From Yuukianura sp. NJ FZ-2021 (lineage: Eukaryota): DNA of 64,000 nucleotides. Location: assembly GCA_046563655.1 (NCBI GenBank), contig CM102283.1, positions 496,001-560,000 on the forward strand, in the 5' to 3' direction. The position numbers and the translations under genes were made by a program. Below, piece after piece: positions 9,635-43,700 of the stretch (the stretch's first letter is position 1; each line of letters begins with the position of its first letter). The notes under the pieces are model-generated. The model was not told the origin of the DNA, made no database searches, and saw nothing but the letters and a program-made list of their open reading frames with translations.

Positions 9635-11251
9635 ATGATCCAAAAAAAAAATTTGTGGGTAAATCTAATGTACGCCTGGGCGGAATTTATGCGTTATGTT
9701 TCAATTCATTACAAATTTGGGCAAGGTGTAGTGCCTGATGTGTTTGTAAGTGCACCACAAGTATTCAACAGGATTTTTGCAGCATTTTCAGCAATTGTCG
9801 TTGGAAGTTTTATAGCCTCGATGTACTATGAAGCCTTCTTCGGCTCGGCCACAAAAATAGAAGTGTTACTTGCTATTGGCATCAACAGCGTCTTCAACGT
9901 AATGAATTTGACTCAGTGGATACTCCTTATTCCATCCACACGGAAACGCTGCATCAACGTTACCAACGTCACTTTCCATTATATGTTCCACCTTTCTCGA
10001 GGCTTACCACCATCTTACCAAATCTTTTGTTTTCTATTTTGCTGTACTTCAATCGCCTACCCATTGGTCTACTTTCCGTTCTTATATTTCCTATCATGCA
10101 GATCTCCTGGATTATTTGCTACAATGCATAGTGGAATTTCACTTGCAACAGTGCAACTTGGATACATTGAAACCGAAGGTGCTGATGCATATTTTTACGT
10201 CTTCAATCTCCTTAAATCTTGCATCATCGTGCCTATTTCTGTTGCATTGGGTCATGCAGTAGTCAACCTATTGGTTCTTGGTCATTGGGGGTTCGCATTT
10301 ATATACACAACGAGTCAAGTACTCAAGGAGCTCAATATTGATTTGTAAGTGAACACATTCGGAAAGGAAGGTTAGACAATTTGTATGTACTAGTATACAG
10401 CTCATTACATCCCAACAAATCCTTAACATTTAACATAAACATTGTCCTGTTTGGTAATCGGGAAAGTGATACGCATGCCACACTAATATCTTATCCCCAA
10501 CATATCTCACACCCAATGCAAACTGCTAATGGAAACTCAAGATTTCTTCGAGACAGCTTGGCAAGGTCTATTTTGGAACGAGATGCTGTGTGCTGAGGCT
10601 GACTGTCTAGACTTTTTCTTAGAAAAATTTGTTGAGACCATATATAGAGCTTAAGTATTCTTTTATTATTATTTATTTATTTTTTTATCCTTTTATTATT
10701 ATATACCTTTTATTATTATTAAGTATACGTATTCTTCCTTTTGAACGATATTGTTCTAATCATGTACGTTGCGTTTCAGTGAGACGCAAGAAACTTTGAC
10801 AACCGACGCTGAACACGGTATCCATTCGGCATATATGAAGCTCATGGTCGCATATCATCACTTGGAAGCAGCCTTTGGTCTTGCACTTGAAGTTTTCTTT
10901 ACGAATGTACTTGTAGCCGTAATATACTTTACTGTCATTATAATTGACACGGCTGGCATCCCTCTTTTCGTTCTGGTTGTTATTGGGGTGGCTGATTTTG
11001 TCGCTGTGCTCACTTTATATTTCGCTCTTAATATTGCAACCGGTCTGCACCTTCTTTCCAAAGACTTGCTTGAAATATCCAAAAGACGAGGAAGGACGAC
11101 TTCAGCGTTTCAATCCAAGTTCTGGGCGGGAATGACTCCGATTCGGGTTACAATTGGAAGTCTTTGTTCATTTGAAACAAGAGAGTTCATTTTGTTCATT
11201 TGGAGCGACGTAATTGTTGCCAAAATCATAGATCTCTTAATTGCTTTTTAA
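9635..11251 (+). CDS. Divergent 7TM chemoreceptor (gustatory/odorant receptor superfamily-like)
   Basis: Two exons, 9635-10344 and 10780-11251, joined by a phase-2 GT-AG intron, ~393 aa. Multiple hydrophobic helices and a C-terminal PIRVTIGS...F...I pattern typical of insect-type chemoreceptors. Confidence 0.7.
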
Positions 11252-12047
11252 AGTATTGTTGAAAAAACGGAAAAAGAAAAAAAAATGTCGCGAAACTACT
11301 ATATTCGTCACATTATACCAATACGTCTGTAGGTACTAGATTAATGTAAGTCCAATTAAAAATAATTTTACTTTTAAAAAAAGTAAACTAGTATTTCAAC
11401 TCTTGCTTTAGCTTTATTCATTTTGCAGCTTATAATGCTTCAAGTAATTTCTACTCGTTATGACGATTTAAAATATATTGTAACTTTTGTCATGAAAAGA
11501 AGTGATTCTTTAATGGTCACACCAGAATTGAATTTGATTTGGCTTGTCAGTTTTTAAGATGGAAATTGAAAAATAAAACTCTTCCGATTCGTGTTCTAAA
11601 TTCGTATAAATCTAAACCAGCGTTGTTGCCAGCATTGTTTTACATTAGCGGCTACAATTGGGTGGCGACAAGGCAAAGTTTCTCATGGACGGCTATGTTG
11701 CCGCACTTGTGTAGCCACCCATTGTAGCCACTCAAGATGGCCGATCCGCCTACTAGGCGGATGCACTGTGCGGCTACAATGACAATAGTTAAAGCTTAGC
11801 TCAACCGCACTTTTACACATCGCAGGATCAGACGATCCGAGGATTGGACAGGCAACCCCAAAGCGCGTTTTTTTAGGACTTCACTTTTCACTTTTCACTA
11901 TCCATCACTATCGTCGACAACGTAAACCGTCGATTTAATGTTTACTGTCTGAGATCGGCATTCAGTTCAGTACAGTACACTACTTAACTAACAATTTAAT
12001 TGAAGTTTTTTTAGTTAAAGTACTAATTTGGTTCGGTTGATGACTTA

Positions 12048-15000
12048 ATGGGAGTTCAAGGTCTGTGGGGTATTTTGGAATCCACTGCTCAACCTGTCAC
12101 ACCTCATTCGCTTCGTGGGAAAGTTCTGGCAATTGGTTAGTAACCGAAATTCATTATTCTGAAAAGTTAATTAACCTTAATCAAAATTATAGTTAGGTAT
12201 TATTATTATTATTATAATTAGTGTGTCGATTCCGGATTTCGTTGGGCTCAGGTTTATCTGCCTTAACTTGTGTCTTGAGTGTATGGGGAGGTCTATAAGA
12301 TAGGCGATAATGATTTACGAACTTTAACTTTAGTCTGGTTTTGACCCCTATACTACGCCAGGTCTAGTATATTAGGCTCATGAGGACTTAGGTTAAGTTT
12401 TAATGGAACAAACTTTGTTGAAAATTTTAGCCGTGCATTCACTTCATTGACGTAAATACACCCGATGGTATGACTTCCGATTCTTCGCTTCCGTCTCAAA
12501 TTCCACTTGGAAAAGAACTTCTGCTTAGTCTACTCAACAACAAGTTGATTATTTGTCTCACCGACGGTCGAACCCTTGTTGGAACTTTCGTTTGTGTTGA
12601 TCGCGAAGCTAACATCATCCTTGCCGGAGCCTCTGAATATCCCGACAGTGACATTGTCGGAGACGGAAGGATTTTGGGATTGGCCATGATCCCAGGTCGA
12701 CACGTCACATCCATCAAAGCAGAAAAGAGCTCAGTATTCGCCCAAAGTCAAAGTGTGGACGTGGAGTAACCCCATTTCAACCAAGGTTCCATCGCTTAAA
12801 CCAAATTGGTTTCCTCTCCCTATCATCGTCCATCCCAATCAACCATCGACATGGCATCGTTATCTCCCATTGCACAAGAAATGATTAGTCCCTCTGCTGC
12901 AAACAACAATGGTCCAAACAATAATGATGATGGATCTCCACTCACATCAGCTATCCCACCTCAAAACTACAAAACTGGAGAAGACGTGGATCCACTCAAG
13001 GACGAAAGGTCAGGATTGCTGCGTGAAGTTGGATGTCAAGCCATTTGGAGTTTGTCTTCTTGTAAACCAGGATACGGCGTGGACCAACTTCGTGACTCTT
13101 CTCTGGACAACTACTGGCAATCTGATGGTCAGTTGCCACACTTGGTCAATATTCAATTCAGAAGGAAGATGACTATTCGGGACATTTGCATCTATACGGA
13201 CTTCAAGTTGGACGAAAGTTACACACCGAGCAAAATCAGTGTCCGATGTGGAACTCACTTCAACGACCTTCAGGAGGTGGAAGTCGTGGAATTCAGTGAG
13301 CCGAGTGGTTGGGTTCAAATCTTCCTCAAGGACATGCGCAGTCGCCCCATCTCAACGTTCATGCTTCAGTTGGCGATTTTGAGCAATCATCAAAACGGAC
13401 GGGACACTCATCTTCGACAAGTTCGGATTCACTCACCAGTTCAAAATTTACCAGCCATGGTTTTTCCGGGAGCCTTCGCCGAGGGCCCTTCTGCGTTTAG
13501 AACATTTTCTTCCATACGCTAACTCTCAATTATTTGAATAATCAAACTCATAAGTAAATTTTTGTTAGAAATAAGTACTTATATATAGTAATCACAACAA
13601 ATCTAAAAACTAAATTAAAGCCCTACTGAAAACCATGTATGAATAGTACGGTAACTTATTGCAATTAGGGATTAGTAGAGATCGTAATTAACAAAAAAGT
13701 AATTAAGAGAAAAATTATAGTCCAATTTATTGATGTGACATGACATTGTGTTTTCATTTTTTGTTAACTAGATGTGTCAATTTGGCTTCATCAAGCAGTC
13801 AAGGGTTTCCGTGACAAAGATGGGAATCCTCTTCCGAATGCTCATCTGTTGGGCCTCTTTCATCGCATTTGCAACTTGCTTCACTCAGGCATTCGTCCTG
13901 TGTTCGTTTTCGACGGAGGAGTTCCAGCGTTGAAGCGACAGACACTGGCAGGACGGCGGCAGAAGAAAGTAGATGCAGCATCCAAGTCAGAATCTGCCCG
14001 ACGGAAACTCCTTTCCAACTACCTTCAGAGCCATGTTCAGCAAGAAGCCAAGAAAGCGTTGCCACCATCATTACGAATGGCAACCAAAATTAGAACTTTG
14101 GCAACTACGAGTTCACCCGACAAAAAACGAAGTTCACCGCAGAAGAAATATGGAGAAGACGAAGATTATGAACTGAAGGAACTACGCCAAAAACTTGGTG
14201 AGAAATTCACATTTTAGATTATTTTTTAAAATTTCATGTTTATGTTTTTTTAAATTCTTCACTTGCTTTGAAAGATGAGTACGATGAAGAGGAAGACTGG
14301 ATCCAAAGTTCGGAGGAATCAAGTGGCTCCGAAGACTTCGATGAGAGGAGCAGTAGAAACTATGCTGATGACTTCTCGACAATTACTTCTGCCCACTTCG
14401 ACTCTCTTGACTTGGAGAAGCAACATGAAATCCTGTTTCAGATGCAAGAATCCAAGAAAACCAACTCTTGGAACAAGATGGCCGAAATGCCGAGAGAAGC
14501 CGGGGAGTTCAGTTCCTTTCAAATGGATCGACTGCTGAAGAGACGTTATCTCCAGAAGAAGATCTTGTCAGTCCAGAAGGAAATGGGACAACGTCATATC
14601 CATGTTCAGAACTTAGATGAACTGTCACTGTACGAAGCTGAGTTTGGAACTGAGCCTCAAGTAGTTGGGTCCAAGGACAAGGGAGCATTGTTCCTCAAAC
14701 CAAAACCAGTGGTTTCTGGCAAGTCCTCCGATGAAGGTACCGTCAAGCCTACAACAAACCCGGACTTGGGGAAAGTTGTTGAACAAGTAAAGAAATCGGA
14801 AGATTCTAGTCCACAAACAGGTCCTTCGCGAAGAAGATATTTTGATGAGGAGGGCGCCGATATCCAGTTGGCACTTGAGTTGTCACTAAAATCTGCGGTA
14901 GGAAAAACTGTAAAGGGTGAGGATGAAGATTTGGAAAGAGCCATTCAGATGTCCATGGAGAACGAAGATACTAGCACAGTCACAACGCCCGATCGACAAG

Positions 15001-17554
15001 CGACGACACCAAAGAAAACCGTCACACAATCAGCACCACCTGAAGTAACAAATCCGATGCGACGTCGACGTAGATCACCAAAGACGGAACTTGAGAATAC
15101 TACTGCAGAGAAACCATTTGAGCAGAAGATTGCTGATGAAATGTCTACGCAGTGCTACAAGTTTTTGGGTTGGGTTGGCTTCAACGACAAAGTAGTACCC
15201 TCGTCCTCATCTCCTGTCAAATCCTCCAGAAATATTTCTCCAGGAACGACTTCCTCATCCTTACTGACTCCGCCTCCTCCACTTCAACCTCAGCCGTTTG
15301 CCCATCCAGCGTCAATATTCCTCCTACCTATGATGTCACCACATCAGGATCAGAGGATGACGATGATTTTGAGGAAGTTGTTGAAGAAACGATTCCAGTG
15401 AGTAAGCCGGATGCTTTAACTTCGTCACTTCGTCCAACTTCGGCTGAGGTCCGAGAGGCAGTAAAGAGAGACAACTCCATTTTACCGGGGTAAAAGGAGA
15501 ATCAAGTATTTAGTAACAGTAAATTAGTTGTAAAATGACAAAAATCACAATTTTTTTTATTTTCAGAATCAAAATTCGAATCACACCACAAGGAGATTTG
15601 GGTGAAGATTTGTTTGCTGACATTTTCTCAGCCGTTATTGCTGAAACAAAGCCGAAAGCTGAACCAAACGATGAAGTGGCAAAAGCAGAAGCTCCGAAGA
15701 TTGAATCCCGGGGTGGAAATAGCATTGTGTGTGCTATTGATGAGGAGGTGGAATTGGAAGAAGTCGGTGCCTCTAGCAGCCAGGAATTCATTCAAGAAAC
15801 GAATAATATCAAAGCAGACGGACAAGGTCAAACCAGCAACGCCGAACCGACCAAGATCAGCCAAAGTTGGAGTCAAGATGAACACGAAGATAATTCCCCG
15901 GTAGCATTTTCACACCGAAATCTGAATTTGGAAAAATCAGACCAGAACGACTTTGATGAAGGTCAAGTTCATCTCGAAGTAGAAGCGGGAATCGAACAAA
16001 ATGGAAGTCATAGTGAAGCGGAAACTGATACTCCAGTTACAGCTCGGAAGCAAACGGAGGAATCATGTAGTGATGAAGATATGGAGGATTTTGCAAGCGT
16101 ACCTGACTCCCGTCAGGCATCTCAACCCGCTTCATCACAAATACGCATGATCACGATGGATTTTATGCAACAGCAGGTAATTCCATTTAAAAAAAGAGAT
16201 TTTTTTTTAGTAAACTGGAGAAAAATATAACAAATCGTTTCAATTTTTAATTTTAGGAGAGATTGCTAAGTGAGAAGGGAGTACTGCGAGGTGAAATTGG
16301 ATCTCAAGAGCGTATTTCCACGTCGATCACTGATCAAATGTACTTGGAAGGACAGGAACTGTTGTCTCTCTTTGGAATTCCGTTTGTTGTGAGTCCAATG
16401 GAAGCAGAAGCCCAGTGTGCCTTCCTTGATGCAGCTTGTCTCACGGATGGAACCATTACGGATGACTCTGACATTTGGCTATTTGGAGCTCTACGAGTGT
16501 ACAAGAACTACTTTGCTCATGGAGATAAACATGTCCAGTTCTTCCAGTACGCCGATGTTGTTCGGAAGTTGCGTAAGTCATTCAATTGCTAAATCTGTTG
16601 AAAAGAAAGTTGTGATCATCGAGTCTAAATCCGCATCGTCTTCTGTGTCCAGATTTGGATCGAGAGAAACTGGTTCTGATTGCCATGTTATGTGGAAGTG
16701 ACTACACGAATGGAATAGAAGGTGTTGGACCTGTCACTGCCTTGGAAATTCTAGGTGATGAAGGGTTTCAAGGATCCTGTGCCCTGGACATCCTTCGGAA
16801 CTTCTACTCCTGGTGGTCCAGTGTGCAGGAATTGGATAGTGATGAAGAGGTGGAGCCAAAATGGAGGGAAAAGTGGCGCAAACTTCGAATTCGTCCAGGC
16901 TTTCCCTCCACCCTTGTCTACGACGCATATCTAAGTCCCACTGTGGATACTTCTACAGAACAATTCCGATGGGGCACTCCTGACCTTGATGCTTTAAGAC
17001 AATATGCCAAAAATAAGTTTGGTTGGACTCATTCTCGGACGGATTCCGTGCTAGGACCTGCGCTCAAAAACTTTGAATGTCAAGCAGCAGAAATCAAGCG
17101 CCAAACTACACTGGACTCGTTCTTATCCAGAAACAATGATCGATCCAGTTCTCCTTCAAGCCCATTCTTAGGTCAAAGTAAACGTCTAAGGAAGGCTGTG
17201 CAGAAACTGAAGAAACAAAACTTGCCGAAAGCAGCACCAGCAGAAGTTGACCTCAGCAGTTCAGACTCTGAAGAGGAAAAGCCAGGAACGAGTCAGAAGA
17301 CATCTGAGACTCCGTTACGAGGGAAGAGGAAGGCCAAGAATCAGAAGAGTGTTGGGACAAAGAAACAACGGAGATCGAAACAAGGCAACACTGAAGATGC
17401 TGAACTGGATGGAAACGTAAAAGTCAAAGGTCAACCTCGGATTCCAAAGGGGTCTGGTGCCGACATTCCACAAAGAACGAGGAGTATTGAAACTAGGAAA
17501 CTAAATAAGGCAAAGGCCATTCAAGTATTGAAACAAGGAAAAGACTCGAAGTAG
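12048..17554 (+). CDS. ERCC5: XPG/ERCC5 (Rad2/mus201) nucleotide excision repair endonuclease
   Basis: Exon 1 (12048-12135, MGVQGLW...LRGKVLAI) splices in phase 1 to 13772 (DVSIWLHQ...PVFVFDG). I-domain PMEAEAQCA..TDDSDIWLFG and H3TH GSDYTNGIEGVGPVTALE, plus a PIP-like QTTLDSFL and a basic C-terminus. Confidence 0.96.
12470..12769 (+). CDS. NAA38: LSM-domain protein, NatC auxiliary subunit (NAA38/LSMD1/Mak31), intronless, nested in XPG intron 1
   Basis: Sm1 motif ([31 protein letters not shown]) and Sm2 motif ([16 protein letters not shown]) match LSMD1. Confidence 0.88.
   Translation: [99 protein letters not shown]
12851..13522 (+). CDS. ANAPC10: Anaphase-promoting complex subunit 10 (DOC1), intronless, nested in XPG intron 1
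   Basis: LREVG..AIWSLSSCKPGYGVDQLRD...YWQSDGQLPHLVNIQF...DESYTPS...NHQNGRDTHLRQ and a C-terminal IR tail. Confidence 0.97.
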   Translation: MASLSPIAQEMISPSAANNNGPNNNDDGSPLTSAIPPQNYKTGEDVDPLKDERSGLLREVGCQAIWSLSSCKPGYGVDQLRDSSLDNYWQSDGQLPHLVNIQFRRKMTIRDICIYTDFKLDESYTPSKISVRCGTHFNDLQEVEVVEFSEPSGWVQIFLKDMRSRPISTFMLQLAILSNHQNGRDTHLRQVRIHSPVQNLPAMVFPGAFAEGPSAFRTFSSIR

Positions 17555-17893
17555 AACTTTTATAGAAAAATCTAAGAATAGCAATTACATAACTTAATTT
17601 AAGTTAGATTAGTTCATGTAAAATAACGATGTGAGTTAAAAAACCTAGTGGTAAATGAAATAAGATAATCAAATAAACTTATTTTTACCAGAGCTGATTT
17701 TGCGCCACATTGTGTTTATTTCCAGGGACAGAAAGTTCATCCATTTCAAGCTTTGATGTTTGGAGTATCCGTTGTCAGCTGTTACTCTCCATATAGGTCG
17801 TAAGGAATGACGGTAAATTCTTTATATCGAACTGAAACTGCGTATCTAAATAACGTGAAGACCAGCAGCGATTATAAACAAAGGCGTATCAAA

Positions 17894-18243
17894 TTATTGG
17901 TAGTAGAGCTCGATATTCATTCCATCGTGAATTTCATCTGCAATATAAATCAAATGATAGGCGTTAAACTTCAACCTATCAAACTTGAACTAAAACTAAA
18001 CTTACTTTTACTATAATCAGATTTAAGGAAGTCTATTATTATCGGGACATATGAATTCGACTTACAGTCTCGAAGTGTAATTTGATCTTTGAAGATGTTG
18101 TACCATTTCTTGAGAACAATTTTCTCAGGCCTCGTTCCAGTCTGAGCTGCAATCAACTTCTTGAGATCTCCAATTGTGTCATCACTGTTACATTTCACGC
18201 GAATCTTTTTCCCCAGGCGGTCGTTGCACACAATTTCAATCAT
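17894..18243 (-). CDS. UBL5: Ubiquitin-like protein 5 (Hub1)
   Basis: [37 protein letters not shown]...; intron 18065..17938; final exon [14 protein letters not shown]. Confidence 0.97.
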
Positions 18244-19148
18244 TTCTGTAAATTGGAATCTGTGGAGGTACGGGTTAAATCATATTAAAAACACAATCGT
18301 AATCGTTTCGTTCCTGCTAATTGATTAGGTATTTTAGAAAAATTACCTTTTAGTATTGATTATCCACGCACACTGATTCGATTTCGCGATTAGAAAGCCC
18401 GGTAAGTTCAATTGTTAAAGCACTCGCAACTTGGAGTTGTTAGGATACCAACCGAGTTTGTTTGTTTACTTCGCTCACCTCAAACACGGTTGGGGAGCAC
18501 TGCATAAGGCGAATGTGTATAATGCTAAAGAGATGGCAAATCCGGTGATCGCCTCGCCGGATTGTGCATCGATGCACAATTTTTGTTGAGCGAAGGATAT
18601 TCTTCGTTCAGTGTACCCGCCTTTACTTTTTAGAATTTCAGCAATGTTTTACGACTATGCTGCGTTAAGAATCTGAAGAGCTCTACTTTCCTTTCAAGTT
18701 CTATAATAGAACAATACTAATTGTAGCCCTGAATTGGTATTTAGTATAACCGTAATGGTTTATTTAAATTGTAGGTACATGAGGAGTGCCTTATTGACGC
18801 CAACCGGGATCACTGGGAAACGCTATTTTGAATTTGTTTATTTTTTTTCAAACAATTCGTCAAATGCAGTGCTCCCAGAGTAACTTGGAGTACAAATTTC
18901 AGAGACTAAATAACATTCGAACAAGGTCAAAGGTTAGGCTGAATTCATAAAAACAAAATTCAAAAACGTTAACAGCTGACTTAAATTTTGTTTTAAATTT
19001 CGCTCTTAAAAGATAAGCTACCATCCACAACTGGTAGGTGGCAGAGGACGCCGGAGAACCAAAAGTCAGCAGAGTAGGAAAAACAAGGGATAAGGGAAAG
19101 TGCAGCCAAACAAACGAGAAACGGAAACGACGACGCGTCCACGCGCTC

Positions 19149-29256: not shown

Positions 29257-31562
29257 GGTCGAAGTAAACTTGGGCCCCCGCCTATCCCCACCCGTTCAAA
29301 TTTTCGCGCTGACTGCATTGTCCCCACCCACTGCCCCACCTGGTGGGGACAAATGTGTCCCCACCAGCCTTATAATGAGTCCCTCTAGCGGCTGAAGTGG
29401 ACCTAGCGAATTCGAGCTGGCAACGCTGTAGCATTGCTCCATTGTACCCACCCACGGCAGATGTAATTAACATAGCGACACTTAATAAGTCAAACCTACA
29501 GACGTAATCAGCATTTCGTGCTTTACCAAACCTAACGCCGCGCCTTCGGCGCGGGAAAATATAACAGTATTTACCAACTCAAAAAGGAACAAACGTTGCC
29601 ACCTTGAGTTCAGAGGTTACTGTATTGCCGCTAGGTGGACGTACTGCTTTTGCTTGTGGTGGGGACAAATGTATCCATCCGGTGGGGACAATGCAGGCAG
29701 CGCGAAAATTTGAACGGGTGGGGACAGGCGGGGGGCCCAAGTTTACTTCAACTGTTGAGGAATCAAGTGGAGATCCACCAATCTCCCTTCCTCCTTGTGT
29801 GACCTTCACTTTAGTTTTGAGTGCACTTGCACACTCGCATCCGGTCTTCCGACTCCACTTGTCACCTTGAGAGAGGACGAAGTGTCAACCTCACCGGAGG
29901 TGACGTGGCCATTCTCAAGGGCGATGAGTGGAGGCGGAATCGCCTCAACTCCTAGTTTAGTTTCAAGTTTAACACTAAGTTGCAATCCAGCACTCGCTGC
30001 GATACCTTGGGCCGAGCGGCAACTTCGTGAATTCATGGATATCGCAAGGAATGACGAAGTTCACCACTACTTGACAGACAAGTCGATTCGATGGCACTTT
30101 ATTCCACCAGGAGCACCTCATCAAGGCGGCCTTTGGGAAGCGAGACTGACGAGATGGCCACATGTCACCCTGATGTTCCAGTACTTCTGGAGACGTCGGA
30201 GTGCAGAGTACCTCACCTCGTTGCAAGAACGCTACAAATGGAAGAAGAAGACGACTAATGTGCAGGTTGGGGACTTGGTGCTGATCCGGGACGAGCAACT
30301 TCCTCCGCTGAAGTGGAAAATGGCGAGAATCACCGAAACCCACCCCGGCACTGATGGTCTAGTTCGAGTCGTCTCCCTCAAGACAGCCACTGGAAGCCTT
30401 CAAACGCCCTATCTCCAAAATTGATCCCCTACTACAACTCAACGACTAAGTTAGGGTAAAAGTATAACTTTTCTTGACCGCCACGGCAAGTCTTTAATTT
30501 TCTCAAACACTAGACCCTTAAGGCTAGCTACCCCCCAAGTTTCGCCAAAATCGGTCGTGCACAGTTGTCTGGATAATTCGTCAAACTTTTGTATAATTAG
30601 GTCACCTCTTTTAGATTAGGTATAGTATAGCATAGTTTTGAGCTAAGTTTCCTAGTATATGCTATAGTGTAAAAATTCGGTTTTTTCTTTCTCTCTAATT
30701 TTACTGACCCTACAAAAATTTGGCACCGCCACGGTACAGGGTTAATTTTCTTAGATACTAGACCCCTTAGGTTACCTTCCTGCAAAGTTTCACAAAAATC
30801 TATCGTGCACAAGATCCAGAGTAATTGGCTAAAGGTTGCAAAATTTAATTTCTTTATTATCTGGTATAGGCTTATCTATAGCTGTAGAACTATCCTTTTC
30901 ATTTGAGTTGGTGGATCTCCATGACTCTTGACGTCCGATTCCATAACGTTTTATCCCGGAATTGAGCTCATCGCTCAATTGGGGGCAGAATGTTGAGGAT
31001 TCAAGTGGAGATCCAGTGATCTCTCCTTCTCCTTGTGTGACCTTCACTTTAGTTTTGAGTGCACTTGCACACTCACATCCGGTCTTCCGACTCCACTTGT
31101 CACCTTGAGAGAGGACGAAGTGTCAACCTCACCGGAGGTGACGTGGCCATTCTCAAGGGCGATGAGTGGAGGCGGAATCGCCTCAACTCCATAGTTAGTT
31201 TTAGTTTAACTTCAAGTTGTCATCCAGCACTCGCTGCGATACCTTCCCTCTCTTCTCTTGCTCACTCGAGCCAATTGTGTTTCTCTCCAGTAGTGGTCAC
31301 TTGACCCTACTATTGTTCTAAAGTCTCTCTCCAGCACTCGCTGTAATAGTTTCTCTCTCCTTTTGCTCACTCGAGCCAAAGTAATTGTTTATACTAATAG
31401 TGGTCACTTGACCCTATTATTGTTCTAAGTGTCCCCCACTCGGGTCAAGTGTAAGTTTGCCTTGTATTGTGCCGTCCTCCTTGGAAAGTGTGCTACAATA
31501 AAGGAAATCTCTAATCATCTAGTTTTTGCACAACTTCATTCCATCCACCCATTTCATCAACC
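29257..31562. mobile_element. Non-autonomous DNA transposon with ~75-bp TIRs (Merlin-like), interrupted by a BEL/Pao insertion
   Basis: Left TIR GGTCGAAGTAAACTTGGGCCCCC...; the right copy is at 29681-29752 plus 31557-31562. 8-bp TSD GTTTTTTG at 29249-56 and 31563-70; GG termini. Confidence 0.75.
29753..31556 (+). mobile_element. Internally deleted BEL/Pao LTR retrotransposon
   Basis: Truncated 5' LTR from TGT at 29753; 3' LTR 30991-31556 after PPT GGGGGCAGAA; 5-bp TSD TCAAC. Integrase WHFIPPGAPHQGGLWE and DUF5641-like FWRR..EYL..LQ.R.KW...GDLVLI...P.KW...GTDGLVRVV. Confidence 0.9.
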
Positions 31563-40704: not shown

Positions 40705-43700
40705 ATGAGTAGATCTACCAGTCCTAGGGATAGGGGAACAAATAACCTACACGCTTTTCCTTTGATGCCTCCATTAATTCCTGCACCACCACCATTGCCC
40801 GCAGTAGCTCCTCCAGTCAGCACCATCCTTAATGCTCCTACAATAATGCCTACTGCTTCGGCGGCAACTTCCCCAACCAAACTCAATGTAGTGGCGCAAT
40901 CAACTCCACCGTTGCCGCAGCGAGTTTCGGTACCATTTCCACGATTTGGGGGAACAAAATCTGAATGTGTTCATAGGTTTTTGGTAAAATTGGAGTTAGC
41001 CGCGATGGCTAATAGACTTCCACCAGCAACTTGGGGACTTTTCTTACCTTCATCTTTAGAAAAAGTGGCAGAAGACTGGCTAGTAAATTTTTTGGAACAA
41101 CAACGGGTTACGGCCCCACAGAATACGGCGGTCATCAGCTAATTACGATCTTCGAAACGAGTTGCTTAAGGTTTTCGGCACGGTTGACTCCATTGCGGCG
41201 GAAGATCGTGCTCAGAACAGAAAACAACAAGTCGATGAAAGCATCGAAGCGTACACTTACGATTTACTAAATATCCTGCAACAACTTGATCCCTCTTTAA
41301 CGGAGCCTCGCAAACTAAAATATCTGATTAGAAATCTTCGCCCTTCGTATCTTCAGCAGATGGCGTTGTTAAATCGTAAAACAATAGCCGAGTTTATCAG
41401 TATCGGGAAGACTATCCAAGAAGCTAACTCCATGTTGAACCATCAAAGGGACGTTTTTGCACTTGAACAAGCTCGTGATAGGGTTTCTCTTGAGCCCACT
41501 GTGGGGATACCTTCTACGATTAATGCGGTTAAAACGGCTTATCCTCATCTTTATCCTAACACTGACAAATTTTTAGAAGATACGACATTGGTTCGTAACT
41601 CGAATCTCTATCGCGATGCTACGATGTTTACCCCAAATCCAGGGACAGGGCCTTCTCAAGGTCACCATCGAGGACCAGTAGTGTGTAAACGATGTAATCA
41701 AAGTGGTCATCTGGCACCCAATTGTCCTCAAATCGTTTGTTATCGTTGTGGGCAGAAGGCTCATATCGCTTCGAGATGCCAAGCGGAAGTGTTTTGCTCC
41801 AATCATAATACCAACACACATGCCACAGTAGTTTGTAGGATGCGGAATCAGCAACAACCTTCTGTGCTGAGTCCAGAGAAATATTGTAACTACCACAATA
41901 GCCGCTCGCATAATACGACGGATTGTCGGGCTTTAAAAAACCAGCAGAACGGGACGACACAAGGGGATCGTCCTGTTCAGACGAAAAACCCCTTGATCAA
42001 CTCTCTCAATACGAGATACCAATCCAATTTGAGCAACAACTAATTTTTCACATCGGTATTGCTGAATTGTTGCGAGTCGCTGGCACAGTTAATCACCATC
42101 CTGCAATTATTTTGTTAGATACAGGAGCTCAGGCCTCCCTCATAGACTCTTCTTTAATACCTTCGGATCAACTTCAAACTTTGCCTCACAGTCTCACTCT
42201 TTCAGGCATAGGAGCTACAAAGATTGAACCAGTTGGTAGAACACAAGTCATTATTAATTTACCTAATTTTAGTGTGAACCATGAGGTTCTCGTTGTTCAG
42301 AATTGTCCACTCAAAGTCCTTCTAGGTATGGATTTCTTACAAAAGCATAACGTCAAAATTGACCTTCGTACACAACATGTAACCATGGGGCATACAACGT
42401 TCCCCATCTTTCGTCCTTCCCGTTCGGAGGACATGATTTTCACAACTCTCACAGATGACACGCAGCAAAGACTCTATGTTATTGATACTTCACATTTAAA
42501 ATTAAGCTCCTCGGCCGGGGAAACGGACGAAATTGCTGGTTCTATGCAGGAATTGAACCAGCATATTCAGCCATTACAGGAAAATAGTCTAGAAACCGTA
42601 TTCTTACCAGAGTCAACAGAGAATATGTCTTTCGCGAAGCAACTCTCTTATATGGATTTTGATAGGATGCCTCTGACGAGAGGTGCACTTTCTTACCAGT
42701 CTCTTACCAGCGATTCAAGTATCGGCCATCCTCTTACAAGGGCCACAGTATTACCTTCGTAGTCTTTATTGTGTGGAACCACGAAACATGTTCAGTTTAA
42801 CGATGATCTAGAGGATGAGAATCATAAGCGGCTTTCCTTAGAGGATTTTGATGCTCATTTACAAAATTTGTATTCCCGAATCAATCCTGAGTTGGAGGAA
42901 CCTCAACAACTCCAACTTCGGAAGTTATTTAAATCTTACAATGATGTGTTTTCTTTCAAAGATGAAATTGGTCTTATCAAAGATTATGTGCACCATATTG
43001 TTTTGAAAAAAGATGCTAAACCATTTCGACACCAACCGGCACGGCGAAGCAAAGAGGCCATGGATGCCGAAAATAATACGATTAAAGAACTACTCAGGCT
43101 TGATAAAATTGAGCCTAGTAACTCCAACTTTCTTTTTCGGACGGTTATGGTTTCCCAGGGTATAACTCAGGCGTTATGATCCAAAACCGGTTATTCCCTC
43201 CAGGCAAAGTTATGATCAAAGGCCACCTACATACCAGTTGATCCCAACGGCTCCCTTGGCAGTTCCTCCTGAACTTTACACTCAAGGCGAAGGTTTCATC
43301 TGGAAAGGGATACCGCGTCCAGCATAGTGAATCCAGTCTTTTCTTCAGTACAATACGAGTCTATTTTACCCTTTGTTTCATCATGCACTCTACTGTCTTC
43401 ATTGGCTTCTTAGGCCTCATATGCTCGGCCCAATCAACTATTGTCCGAACGCTATCCGACATCTCAACAGTTACTAACCTTTCGACAGCACTATCGCATG
43501 ATGTATCAGAAAATCGTCAACTATGGGACAATCGGCGCGAGTTTAATGAGTCCCATTCCAAAACTCACCGTTGGATTATTGGAGTTTTAAGTTCTTACCG
43601 ACAGCCACAGGCTCTTCCTCTGCATCACGCCACATTAGCTTCCGTCGAATTTACTGTTCATGCGAGCCAAGGAAATCCACGAATAGCGTATGTGTGTACT

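Follow-up and report, generated by a model that had tools for sequence, protein, structure and literature searches.

The window analysed here, 64,000 nucleotides of Yuukianura sp. NJ FZ-2021, contains a DNA-repair gene of the XPG (ERCC5/mus201) type, whose first intron, 1636 nt long, holds two complete, conserved and non-overlapping open reading frames (ORFs) on the same strand, the housekeeping genes NAA38 and APC10, with a short spacer between them (Table 1). The Pfam XPG_N domain is split over the first two exons: exon 1 matches positions 1-31 of the profile (E 5e-5), exon 2 positions 34-100 (E 4e-18). As in XPG/ERCC5 (Rad2 family), a long spacer keeps it apart from XPG_I. For the C-terminal exon, ERCC5/mus201 proteins match at 1e-34; among named relatives that cover more than half of this exon, none is above 50% identity, and ticks come top at 46%. 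The borders that the original prediction gave for exon 1 and for the start of exon 2 hold; the donor CAATTG/gttagt lies directly 3' of 12135, and the end of exon 2 was placed from CTTG/gtgaga and from the continuity of the frame into 14275 onward. Two TCAGT initiator-like motifs are found 86 and 81 nt 5' of the XPG ATG, and an Rfam scan of positions 11000-18500 (E <= 0.1) gave no match.

Table 1. Features of the XPG locus, with positions in the window.
Feature	Position	Strand	Description
XPG (ERCC5/mus201-type) exon 1	12048..12135	+	88 nt, phase 1; ATG, 29 codons and 1 base; Pfam XPG_N 1-31
Proposed short intron of a NAA38-APC10 mRNA	12136..12430	+	15 AGs that could serve as acceptors, each 60 nt or more from the donor
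Predicted uORF tail if 12430 is used	12431..12450	+	AVHSLH, stop TGA at 12448-12450
Minimal uORF ATG-GTA-TGA	12465..12473	+	Overlaps the NAA38 start codon
NAA38 ORF (NatC auxiliary subunit, Sm fold)	12470..12769	+	99 aa, intronless; Pfam LSM 1.7e-11
Intercistronic spacer	12770..12850	+	81 nt; no poly(A) hexamer; single AG at 12784-12785
APC10 ORF (anaphase-promoting complex subunit 10)	12851..13522	+	223 aa, intronless; Pfam ANAPC10 2e-73
ATTAAA, candidate 3' end signal of a NAA38-APC10 mRNA	13614..13619	+	No other canonical-type poly(A) hexamer within the intron
XPG exon 2	13772..14197	+	Acceptor ttgttaactag/AT; Pfam XPG_N 34-100; homologous exon in L001 and L007
Remaining XPG exons	14275..17554	+	XPG_I region 16338-16589; C-terminal exon, stop 17554; borders mapped in part

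Both nested ORFs could be assigned by domain and structure matches, which agree with the earlier description of two complete genes 81 nt apart with no AATAAA between them, and as coding sequences they are far above chance expectation. In the PDB ranking, the first ORF is followed by human NAA38 (7mx2_C, 1e-18) and the S. pombe (8e-10) and yeast (6e-7) proteins, and only then by SmB (1e-6), and is by this measure closer to NAA38 than to the Sm/LSm paralogues; a protein search matched four proteins, two of them close. The second ORF covers positions 8-168 of the 185 of PF03256, the full ANAPC10 (DOC) domain, and matches human APC10 at 1e-70, while an ESM Atlas search yielded generic APC10 clusters only; its N-terminus carries a low-complexity extension that is specific to the clade in the alignment.

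The relatives compared were metagenome loci, eight of which form the closest clade (L001-L008), together with 35 other loci. Synteny, put forward earlier as a check on the arrangement, was found throughout this clade, with the NAA38 ORF directly 5' of APC10 in 8/8 loci (NAA38 being only partial in L005 and L006); no NAA38 match was present in any of the other 35. The full order XPG exon 1, NAA38, APC10, XPG exon 2 recurs in L001 and L007, which are both of the genomic loci long enough to show the complete nested layout, and homologues of exon 1, on which purifying selection acts, were identified in L001, L003 and L007. A tree of the single gene APC10 places the clade of Yuukianura sp. as sister to insects and L007 as its earliest branch, and dS was saturated in all 21 of 21 APC10 pairs (dN 0.10-0.26). 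Judged by these comparisons, the layout is conserved in an old clade: NAA38 and APC10 are both kept across it in spite of saturated synonymous sites, and the gap between exon 1 and NAA38 has stayed at 322-359 nt in three genomic loci.

Contigs of four relatives (L002, L003, L005 and L006) look like dicistronic mRNAs, because all four (4/4) run through the spacer into APC10 and their ends follow a poly(A) signal on the sense strand (AATAAA or AATATA), at a distance of 10, 17, 22 and 19 nt, respectively, an arrangement found in 2/66 control contig ends; in L003 the terminal signal is AATAAA. The contig series also includes L009, whose ORFs are convergent, and L022, which has a tandem copy; these two point to assembly artefacts or a DNA origin for some of its members. 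Two independent monocistronic genes, close to each other in the intron and with separate promoters and poly(A) sites, would be the default expectation for eukaryotic genes, and L007 does carry an AATAAA inside its 40-nt spacer, so that some of its transcripts could end after NAA38, a point that also counts against a shared unit. This arrangement is nevertheless highly improbable, as the mRNA-like contigs of four relatives cross the spacer, no poly(A) hexamer separates the two ORFs in the window, and spacers of 35-40 nt (L008 and L007) are too small for a terminator and a promoter; across the relatives the spacers measure 35-168 nt.

Trans-splicing has been reported for some arthropod lineages, and the original prediction had raised spliced-leader trans-splicing upstream of 12851, by which an operon would be cut into monocistronic NAA38 and APC10 mRNAs, each with a spliced leader. 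We consider this extremely improbable. The only AG of the spacer lies 65 nt 5' of the APC10 ATG, with none nearer or adjoining it, the contigs of the relatives run colinearly through the spacer, and L002, L003, L005 and L010 have no sequence in common at their 5' ends; the 5' end of L003 consists of XPG 5' UTR and exon 1, and not of a common leader.

How such a dicistronic mRNA would begin is indicated by L003, the only contig that extends far enough 5' to inform on the exon 1 junction (L002, with a leader of 53 nt, and L005 and L006, which start inside NAA38, are uninformative on the 5' end). It has a 5' UTR of 80 nt, which matches the distances of the two TCAGT motifs from the XPG ATG in the window, followed by XPG exon 1 (positions 81-168). 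This exon ends in ...GCAGTTG and runs directly into ACGAAAG without a GT donor, at a site that reads G/GT in all three genomic loci; a leader of 56 nt then separates it from the NAA38 ATG. Exon 1 of L003 is under purifying selection (omega 0.07-0.30) and must therefore also serve XPG; since this use needs a donor, and the donor is absent from the contig, L003 is a spliced product. Its sequence reads as an upstream ORF (uORF) of 33 codons, MGIHG...LAVDERS-stop, whose last four codons past the junction (DERS) leave 42 nt to the NAA38 ATG, and then as NAA38 (from 225) and APC10 (from 663). The junction was seen in a single contig, and the relative that it comes from belongs to a different branch of the clade; this counts against a shared unit in Yuukianura sp.

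The best alignment of the L003 leader with the sister locus L004 starts exactly after ...ttttgtgtttag, its score being reached by 35/500 shuffles, and this is only suggestive. Against the genomic gaps, the best scores of the same leader were reached in 7-120 of the 500 shuffles, and against the 53-nt leader of L002 in 498/500, which is again no more than suggestive. Over seven loci, the leaders 5' of NAA38 could not be aligned (43% column identity), and this lack of alignment across species again counts against a shared unit.

In the window, the original prediction had named the TTTTAG ending at 12430 as the acceptor, and the reading that it gave is correct: joined to 12431, exon 1 continues as ...LAI-AVHSLH-stop and terminates 19 nt 5' of the NAA38 ATG. 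This AG is the last one ahead of that ATG, and it is one of 15 candidates; its pyrimidine tract is weak to mediocre (0.55, with higher scores for others such as 12279 and 12361, both 0.70), a further point against the shared unit. The outcome is the same in kind for 15/15 acceptors of the window, each of which would give a uORF of 30-64 codons, the frame stopping 1-35 codons past the junction and 14-171 nt before the NAA38 ATG. An in-frame fusion of the XPG N-terminus with NAA38 was considered and is ruled out for L003 and for all 15 acceptors; L001 does have in-frame AGs, after 990 and after 999, as does L007 after 4006, with no sign of use. The minimal uORF ATG-GTA-TGA that had been noticed at the NAA38 start is present, and it is probably incidental, because the NAA38 ATG of L001 has no such start-stop.

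The main rival to a shared unit is a promoter of the nested pair's own, within 12136-12469, from which the NAA38-APC10 mRNA would start, with splicing of exon 1 absent or rare and the form found in L003 either lineage-specific or a minor isoform. According to passages of the FlyBase account, it is common for a gene nested on the strand of its host to have a promoter of its own, and FlyBase does not flag such cases (PMC4528330). The weak 12430 acceptor, the non-conserved leaders and the 53-nt leader of L002, which has no exon 1 sequence, would all fit such a promoter. So would L004, where no XPG exon was found in the 650 nt 5' or the 1.5 kb 3' of NAA38-APC10, another gene following, an observation that likewise counts against a shared unit. 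We regard a separate promoter as rather unlikely, since L003, alone in extending far enough 5', has the junction, and the tight nesting behind exon 1 has been kept in three genomic loci through saturated divergence. The gap between exon 1 and NAA38 in the window also has no TCAGT or TATA-like motif, to be compared with the two TCAGT motifs 5' of exon 1, which is weak evidence in the same direction. With a promoter of its own, the cassette would be an ordinary nested dicistronic gene.

We therefore favour, with a probability of roughly 0.6, the reading that XPG, NAA38 and APC10 form one compound transcription unit, in which exon 1 is spliced alternatively and a dicistronic NAA38-APC10 mRNA is produced; one promoter probably serves all three genes. 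Transcription would begin 5' of XPG exon 1, and the exon 1 donor (12135/GT) would have two mutually exclusive uses. Spliced to the distal acceptor at 13771, it would give the XPG mRNA. Spliced to a proximal acceptor 40-270 nt 5' of the NAA38 ATG, of which 12430 is the nearest candidate, it would give a transcript that is cleaved and polyadenylated within XPG intron 1, near the ATTAAA at 13614. This hexamer lies 92 nt 3' of the APC10 stop and 158 nt 5' of XPG exon 2; no poly(A) hexamer was found 5' of it within intron 1, and AATAAA is absent from the whole intron. In the second mRNA, the XPG ATG and its 29 codons would run out of frame to a stop, forming the uORF of 30-64 codons, with the complete NAA38 and APC10 cistrons behind it. 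For Yuukianura sp. itself we infer the same splice, the acceptor used, the poly(A) site and the mode of translation from the window and from its relatives. Thus, the original prediction of one promoter yielding either XPG mRNA or a uORF-NAA38-APC10 mRNA gains from the L003 junction and from the three further spanning contigs of relatives, and its choice of 12430 in particular loses to the number of candidate acceptors and the mediocre tract.

NAA38 and APC10 might be translated by reinitiation after the uORF, or partly because some ribosomes scan past the XPG ATG (leaky scanning); in Yuukianura sp. this ATG has a T at -3. Leaky scanning was rejected as a general mechanism for APC10: depletion of ATGs between the NAA38 and APC10 starts, relative to codon shuffles, was not significant in seven loci (P = 0.025-0.49, with the L002 coordinates off by one), and L003 has eight ATGs in that interval. 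Both observations count against a shared unit as well.

A wider version of the proposal can be put forward only tentatively. It takes the locus as an anciently conserved unit, in a lineage beside insects, in which one promoter and one coding exon give either XPG or a tricistronic mRNA (XPG-N-peptide uORF, NAA38 and APC10), with antagonistic expression and serial reinitiation. If this were true, the DNA-repair nuclease XPG and the two nested genes, for a NatC and an APC/C subunit, would be expressed in a mechanically coupled and antagonistic way, and ribosomes would have to reinitiate serially behind a uORF of 30-plus codons to make two essential proteins at full length. If the shared-unit model holds, the locus would represent a natural and deeply conserved recycling of a host's coding first exon as the uORF of a nested dicistronic cassette, combining three "rule-bending" features that are catalogued separately in Drosophila. 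At about 1.7 kb, it would also be a compact natural system in which to study how splicing competes with intronic polyadenylation, and it would bear on the way in which two long cistrons that follow a uORF are translated in animals. Annotation would be affected too, as in this lineage standard gene predictors would either overlook one essential gene of the pair or build a wrong model of XPG.

The XPG-NAA38-APC10 arrangement can be seen as a variation on layouts already described, in which genes share an exon or lie together on a dicistronic mRNA. In the cholinergic gene locus, VAChT is nested within the first intron of ChAT. As proposed for the XPG locus, a same-strand gene in the first intron there uses the host promoter, and host exon 1 is spliced to an alternative acceptor. 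However, the exon shared in that locus is non-coding, whereas XPG exon 1 has an ATG and 29 codons and would become an out-of-frame uORF; in addition, the nested unit in XPG would itself be dicistronic, and the products of XPG, NAA38 and APC10 are functionally unrelated. Human BIVM-ERCC5 is a read-through transcription unit, in which the upstream neighbour reads into ERCC5. It resembles the unit proposed here in that XPG/ERCC5 is transcribed together with a neighbour to which it is unrelated, and differs in that it has no nested cassette using the ERCC5 first exon.

The original prediction had also named a locus shared by mus201 and Chrac-14 in Drosophila, which found no backing: mus201, Chrac-14, APC10 and CG31950 are absent from the FlyBase polycistronic and exon-sharing lists (PMC4528330, Files S1 and S2). 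Plain same-strand nesting is not flagged in these lists, so that a nesting of mus201 and Chrac-14 is compatible with their absence. Literature searches found nothing linking mus201 with APC10, only a GO gene list linking Chrac-14 with mus201, only a paper on lemmingA/Apc11 for APC10 and dicistronic genes in Drosophila, and no Naa38, APC10 or ANAPC10 among the matches listed for polycistronic, bicistronic or dicistronic genes.

Passages of the FlyBase account place 130 genes of D. melanogaster in the class "Shares 5' UTR / 5' exon(s)", with VAChT listed under "shared promoter", and 10 pairs and one triplet, among them Su(var)3-9 / eIF-2gamma, in that of "genes with CDS overlap" (PMC4528330). 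Su(var)3-9 and eIF-2gamma are described there as having a common promoter, first coding exon and start codon, an arrangement thought to stem from an insertion into an intron and conserved in a clade (PMC4528330). As proposed for the XPG locus, evolutionarily distinct genes thus have a promoter and a first coding exon in common; unlike in the XPG locus, where no part of XPG would be fused to NAA38, the shared residues there are in frame in both proteins. The same passages count 159 dicistronic pairs, 7 tricistronic and 2 tetracistronic cases in Drosophila release 6.04 (PMC4528330), and neither APC10 nor CG31950 (Naa38) is in the dicistronic/polycistronic list of File S1. The NAA38-APC10 pair resembles these mRNAs in placing two complete, unrelated coding sequences on one putative mRNA with a short spacer, and differs from them in being also nested in, and apparently fed by, a host gene.

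The original prediction placed complete NAA38 and APC10 genes within XPG intron 1, and this nested layout was borne out, with both exons and both ORFs at the predicted positions (see table) and the two ORFs 81 nt apart on the XPG strand of a 1636-nt intron. The Pfam XPG_N profile is divided between the exon 1 piece (positions 1–31) and the exon 2 piece (positions 34–100), and XPG_I is found at 16338–16589 (Pfam). The top solved-structure matches of the NAA38 ORF are human NAA38 (1e-18), S. pombe (8e-10) and yeast (6e-7), with SmB behind at 1e-6. The lack of AATAAA between the two ORFs was confirmed and extends to the entire intron. Also present in the sequence, as predicted, are the ATG GTA TGA overlapping the NAA38 start and a TTTTAG ending at 12430, to which exon 1 can be joined to read ...AVHSLH and a stop codon (12448–12450) 19 nt 5' of the NAA38 ATG.

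Features of the XPG–NAA38–APC10 locus in the window
Feature	Position	Strand	Remarks
XPG exon 1	12048-12135	+	88 nt, encodes MGVQGLWGILESTAQPVTPHSLRGKVLAI plus one base; donor end CAATTG/gttagt
Mini-uORF ATG GTA TGA	12465-12473	+	overlaps NAA38 ATG
NAA38 ORF	12470-12769	+	99 aa, LSM domain (Pfam)
APC10 ORF	12851-13522	+	223 aa; PF03256 2e-73; human APC10 1e-70
ATTAAA	13614	+	single copy in intron; 92 nt past APC10 stop
XPG exon 2 start	13772	+	frame resumes (G)AT GTG TCA after ...ttgttaactag, giving D-VSIWLHQAVKGFRD

The shared-exon interpretation was tested in relatives. Among the matches listed, the closest APC10 proteins are metagenome proteins (75–86% identity), the named arthropods reaching 66–70%. 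Scanning metagenome contigs with an APC10 protein alignment (A1) gave 43 loci (L-numbers), and in an APC10 tree of 30 rows (the window, L001–L010, L022 and 18 named proteins chosen from the 120 matches listed) the window and L001–L008 form a single clade (support 100/99), in which L007 branches first; its position as sister to insects (97/94), obtained from one short gene, is tentative. Since dS is saturated in 21 of 21 APC10 pairs and dN is 0.10–0.26, the clade is old and its genes are under purifying selection. Every APC10 of the clade carries a low-complexity N-terminal extension of 30–60 residues (Ala/Asn/Pro/Thr-rich; window 12851–12985, A1 columns 1–70), absent from named arthropod APC10 in the same alignment.

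A NAA38 ORF lies immediately 5' of APC10 in all eight loci of the clade (L005 is without the NAA38 start and L006 has just the last 20 codons), with spacers of 35–168 nt, and no NAA38 match was obtained in the other 35 loci (tblastn and ORF listing in both cases). Of the XPG exons, the first turned up in L001, L003 and L007 and the second in L001 and L007; the three weak matches to exon 1 in L014–L016 (E = 0.15) were taken as chance. The synteny check proposed earlier, run on these metagenome loci, recovered the full nested arrangement in L001 and L007, both genomic, in the order exon 1 (G/gtaag donor), gap of 322 or 359 nt, NAA38, APC10 and exon 2, the last preceded by a pyrimidine-rich ...ag/ATGT. 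L008 is too short to show whether XPG exons flank the pair. In L004, neither the 650 nt upstream nor the 1.5 kb downstream of the pair holds an XPG exon; the pair may have changed place or its host intron may be longer, and unless the intron is longer this layout speaks against universality of the nesting. Another same-strand gene (L004 2513–3220; lysine- and glutamate-rich, open to the contig end) stands about 800 nt 3' of the pair, in place of XPG exon 2.

Four short contigs of the clade (L002, L003, L005 and L006) end 10, 17, 22 and 19 nt, respectively, past a sense-strand AATAAA or AATATA, as do only 2 of 66 ends of other whole contigs (both on L019) and none of their own four opposite ends, and were therefore read as assemblies of polyadenylated mRNAs. 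Each continues from NAA38 across the spacer into APC10, which supports a dicistronic mRNA in four species and argues against separate NAA38 and APC10 mRNAs, as well as against resolution by trans-splicing, which had been raised for checking. The same contig series includes L009, with convergent ORFs, and L022, with a tandem copy, so some of its members are not clean transcripts. L022, placed beside oribatid mites by the tree, contains two near-identical APC10 copies (3–485 and 767–1306) with single-residue differences, suggestive of either an artefact of assembly or, in a mite-like lineage, a recent duplication. The AATAAA within the L007 spacer is a point against strict absence of a signal between the cistrons. 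The one-promoter uORF–NAA38–APC10 claim finds partial support, which is strong for a conserved dicistronic NAA38–APC10 mRNA nested in XPG and, for first-exon sharing, comes from the mRNA of one relative.

That relative is L003, the one mRNA-like contig whose 5' reach is informative for exon 1; it begins 80 nt 5' of an XPG start codon. Its exon 1 encodes MGIHGLWQVLEPTGRSVNIHSLRGKVLAV and continues ...GCAGTTG-ACGAAAGAAGTTGA, without GT, exactly where the three genomic loci have G/GT; a stop follows DERS and closes an ORF of 33 codons, with NAA38 42 nt further at 225 and APC10 at 663. Since this exon is under purifying selection (omega 0.07–0.30 against other loci), it must also be the XPG N-terminus in that species, a role that needs a donor that L003 is without, so the contig is best read as a spliced exon 1–NAA38–APC10 mRNA of the kind originally predicted. 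The L003 leader aligns best with its sister L004, starting right after ...ttttgtgtttag, with a score reached by 35 of 500 shuffles; leaders upstream of NAA38 were otherwise not alignable among relatives.

We give the shared-exon model a probability of about 0.6 in the window species, where, by analogy with L003, exon 1 would be spliced to the NAA38 leader. Transcription of NAA38–APC10 from an internal promoter would dispense with that splice; we regard it as unlikely, though still the foremost competitor, and little weight is left for anything else. Two TCAGT motifs precede the XPG ATG, by 86 and 81 nt, and none occurs in the exon 1–NAA38 gap, which may weakly point to a start upstream of exon 1. 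For the shared-exon model, the gap offers 15 AGs at least 60 nt into it, the last being that at 12430, with a pyrimidine fraction of 0.55 (0.70 at 12279 and 12361), and any of them would give a uORF of 30–64 codons from exon 1, ending 14–171 nt before the NAA38 ATG. The predicted NAA38–APC10 mRNA would likely end near the ATTAAA at 13614. The sole AATAAA of L001 is 28 nt short of XPG exon 2, which would set polyadenylation in direct competition with the distal acceptor. An AG is also placed 2 nt 5' of the NAA38 ATG in L001 (990–1001, cag/GGATGG; a further AG lies 11 nt before the ATG) and L007 (4005–4008, aag/GAATGG); if used with the phase-1 exon 1, these would put the 29 N-terminal residues of XPG in frame with NAA38. 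No AG is so placed in the window.

Leaky scanning was ruled out as a general route to APC10, because ATG depletion between the NAA38 and APC10 starts did not reach significance and 8 ATGs occur in this interval in L003. Reinitiation would be the remaining simple model; in flies, DENR-MCTS1 promotes reinitiation after strong-context uORFs.

We found no description of a NAA38–APC10 or XPG-nested unit in the open-access texts searched. The FlyBase 'Rule-Benders' account of D. melanogaster lists 159 dicistronic pairs, 130 genes with a promoter and 5' non-coding exons in common, VAChT among them, and 10 pairs and one triplet whose coding first exon is shared in frame, e.g., Su(var)3-9/eIF-2gamma (PMC4528330). 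The proposed XPG–NAA38–APC10 unit would unite features of these three classes: like VAChT, the nested unit sits in intron 1; as in Su(var)3-9, a coding exon would be shared, but XPG exon 1 would be out of frame, hence the uORF; and the nested unit would itself be dicistronic. Neither mus201, Chrac-14, APC10 nor CG31950, the fly Naa38 (PMC6385987, PMC10611716), is in Files S1 and S2 of PMC4528330, which means that, as far as these files go, D. melanogaster has no annotated arrangement of this kind; the suggestion that mus201 shares its locus with Chrac-14 finds no support in them, although plain nesting is not flagged there.

Elsewhere in the window, four copies of a motif of about 12–15 nt (GGCTACAAT-type; two direct, two inverted) are grouped at 11647–11781, 270–400 nt 5' of where XPG starts, and may represent either a cluster of regulatory sites or a small element with inverted repeats. 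Just past the XPG stop, a minus-strand ORF of 90 aa (17971–18243) looks by eye ubiquitin-like, presumably of the UBL5/Hub1 type. Retrotransposon-derived ORFs occupy 29759–30421 and 41087–42759, with DUF5641 (1.6e-31), a gag zinc knuckle and a retroviral-type aspartyl protease.
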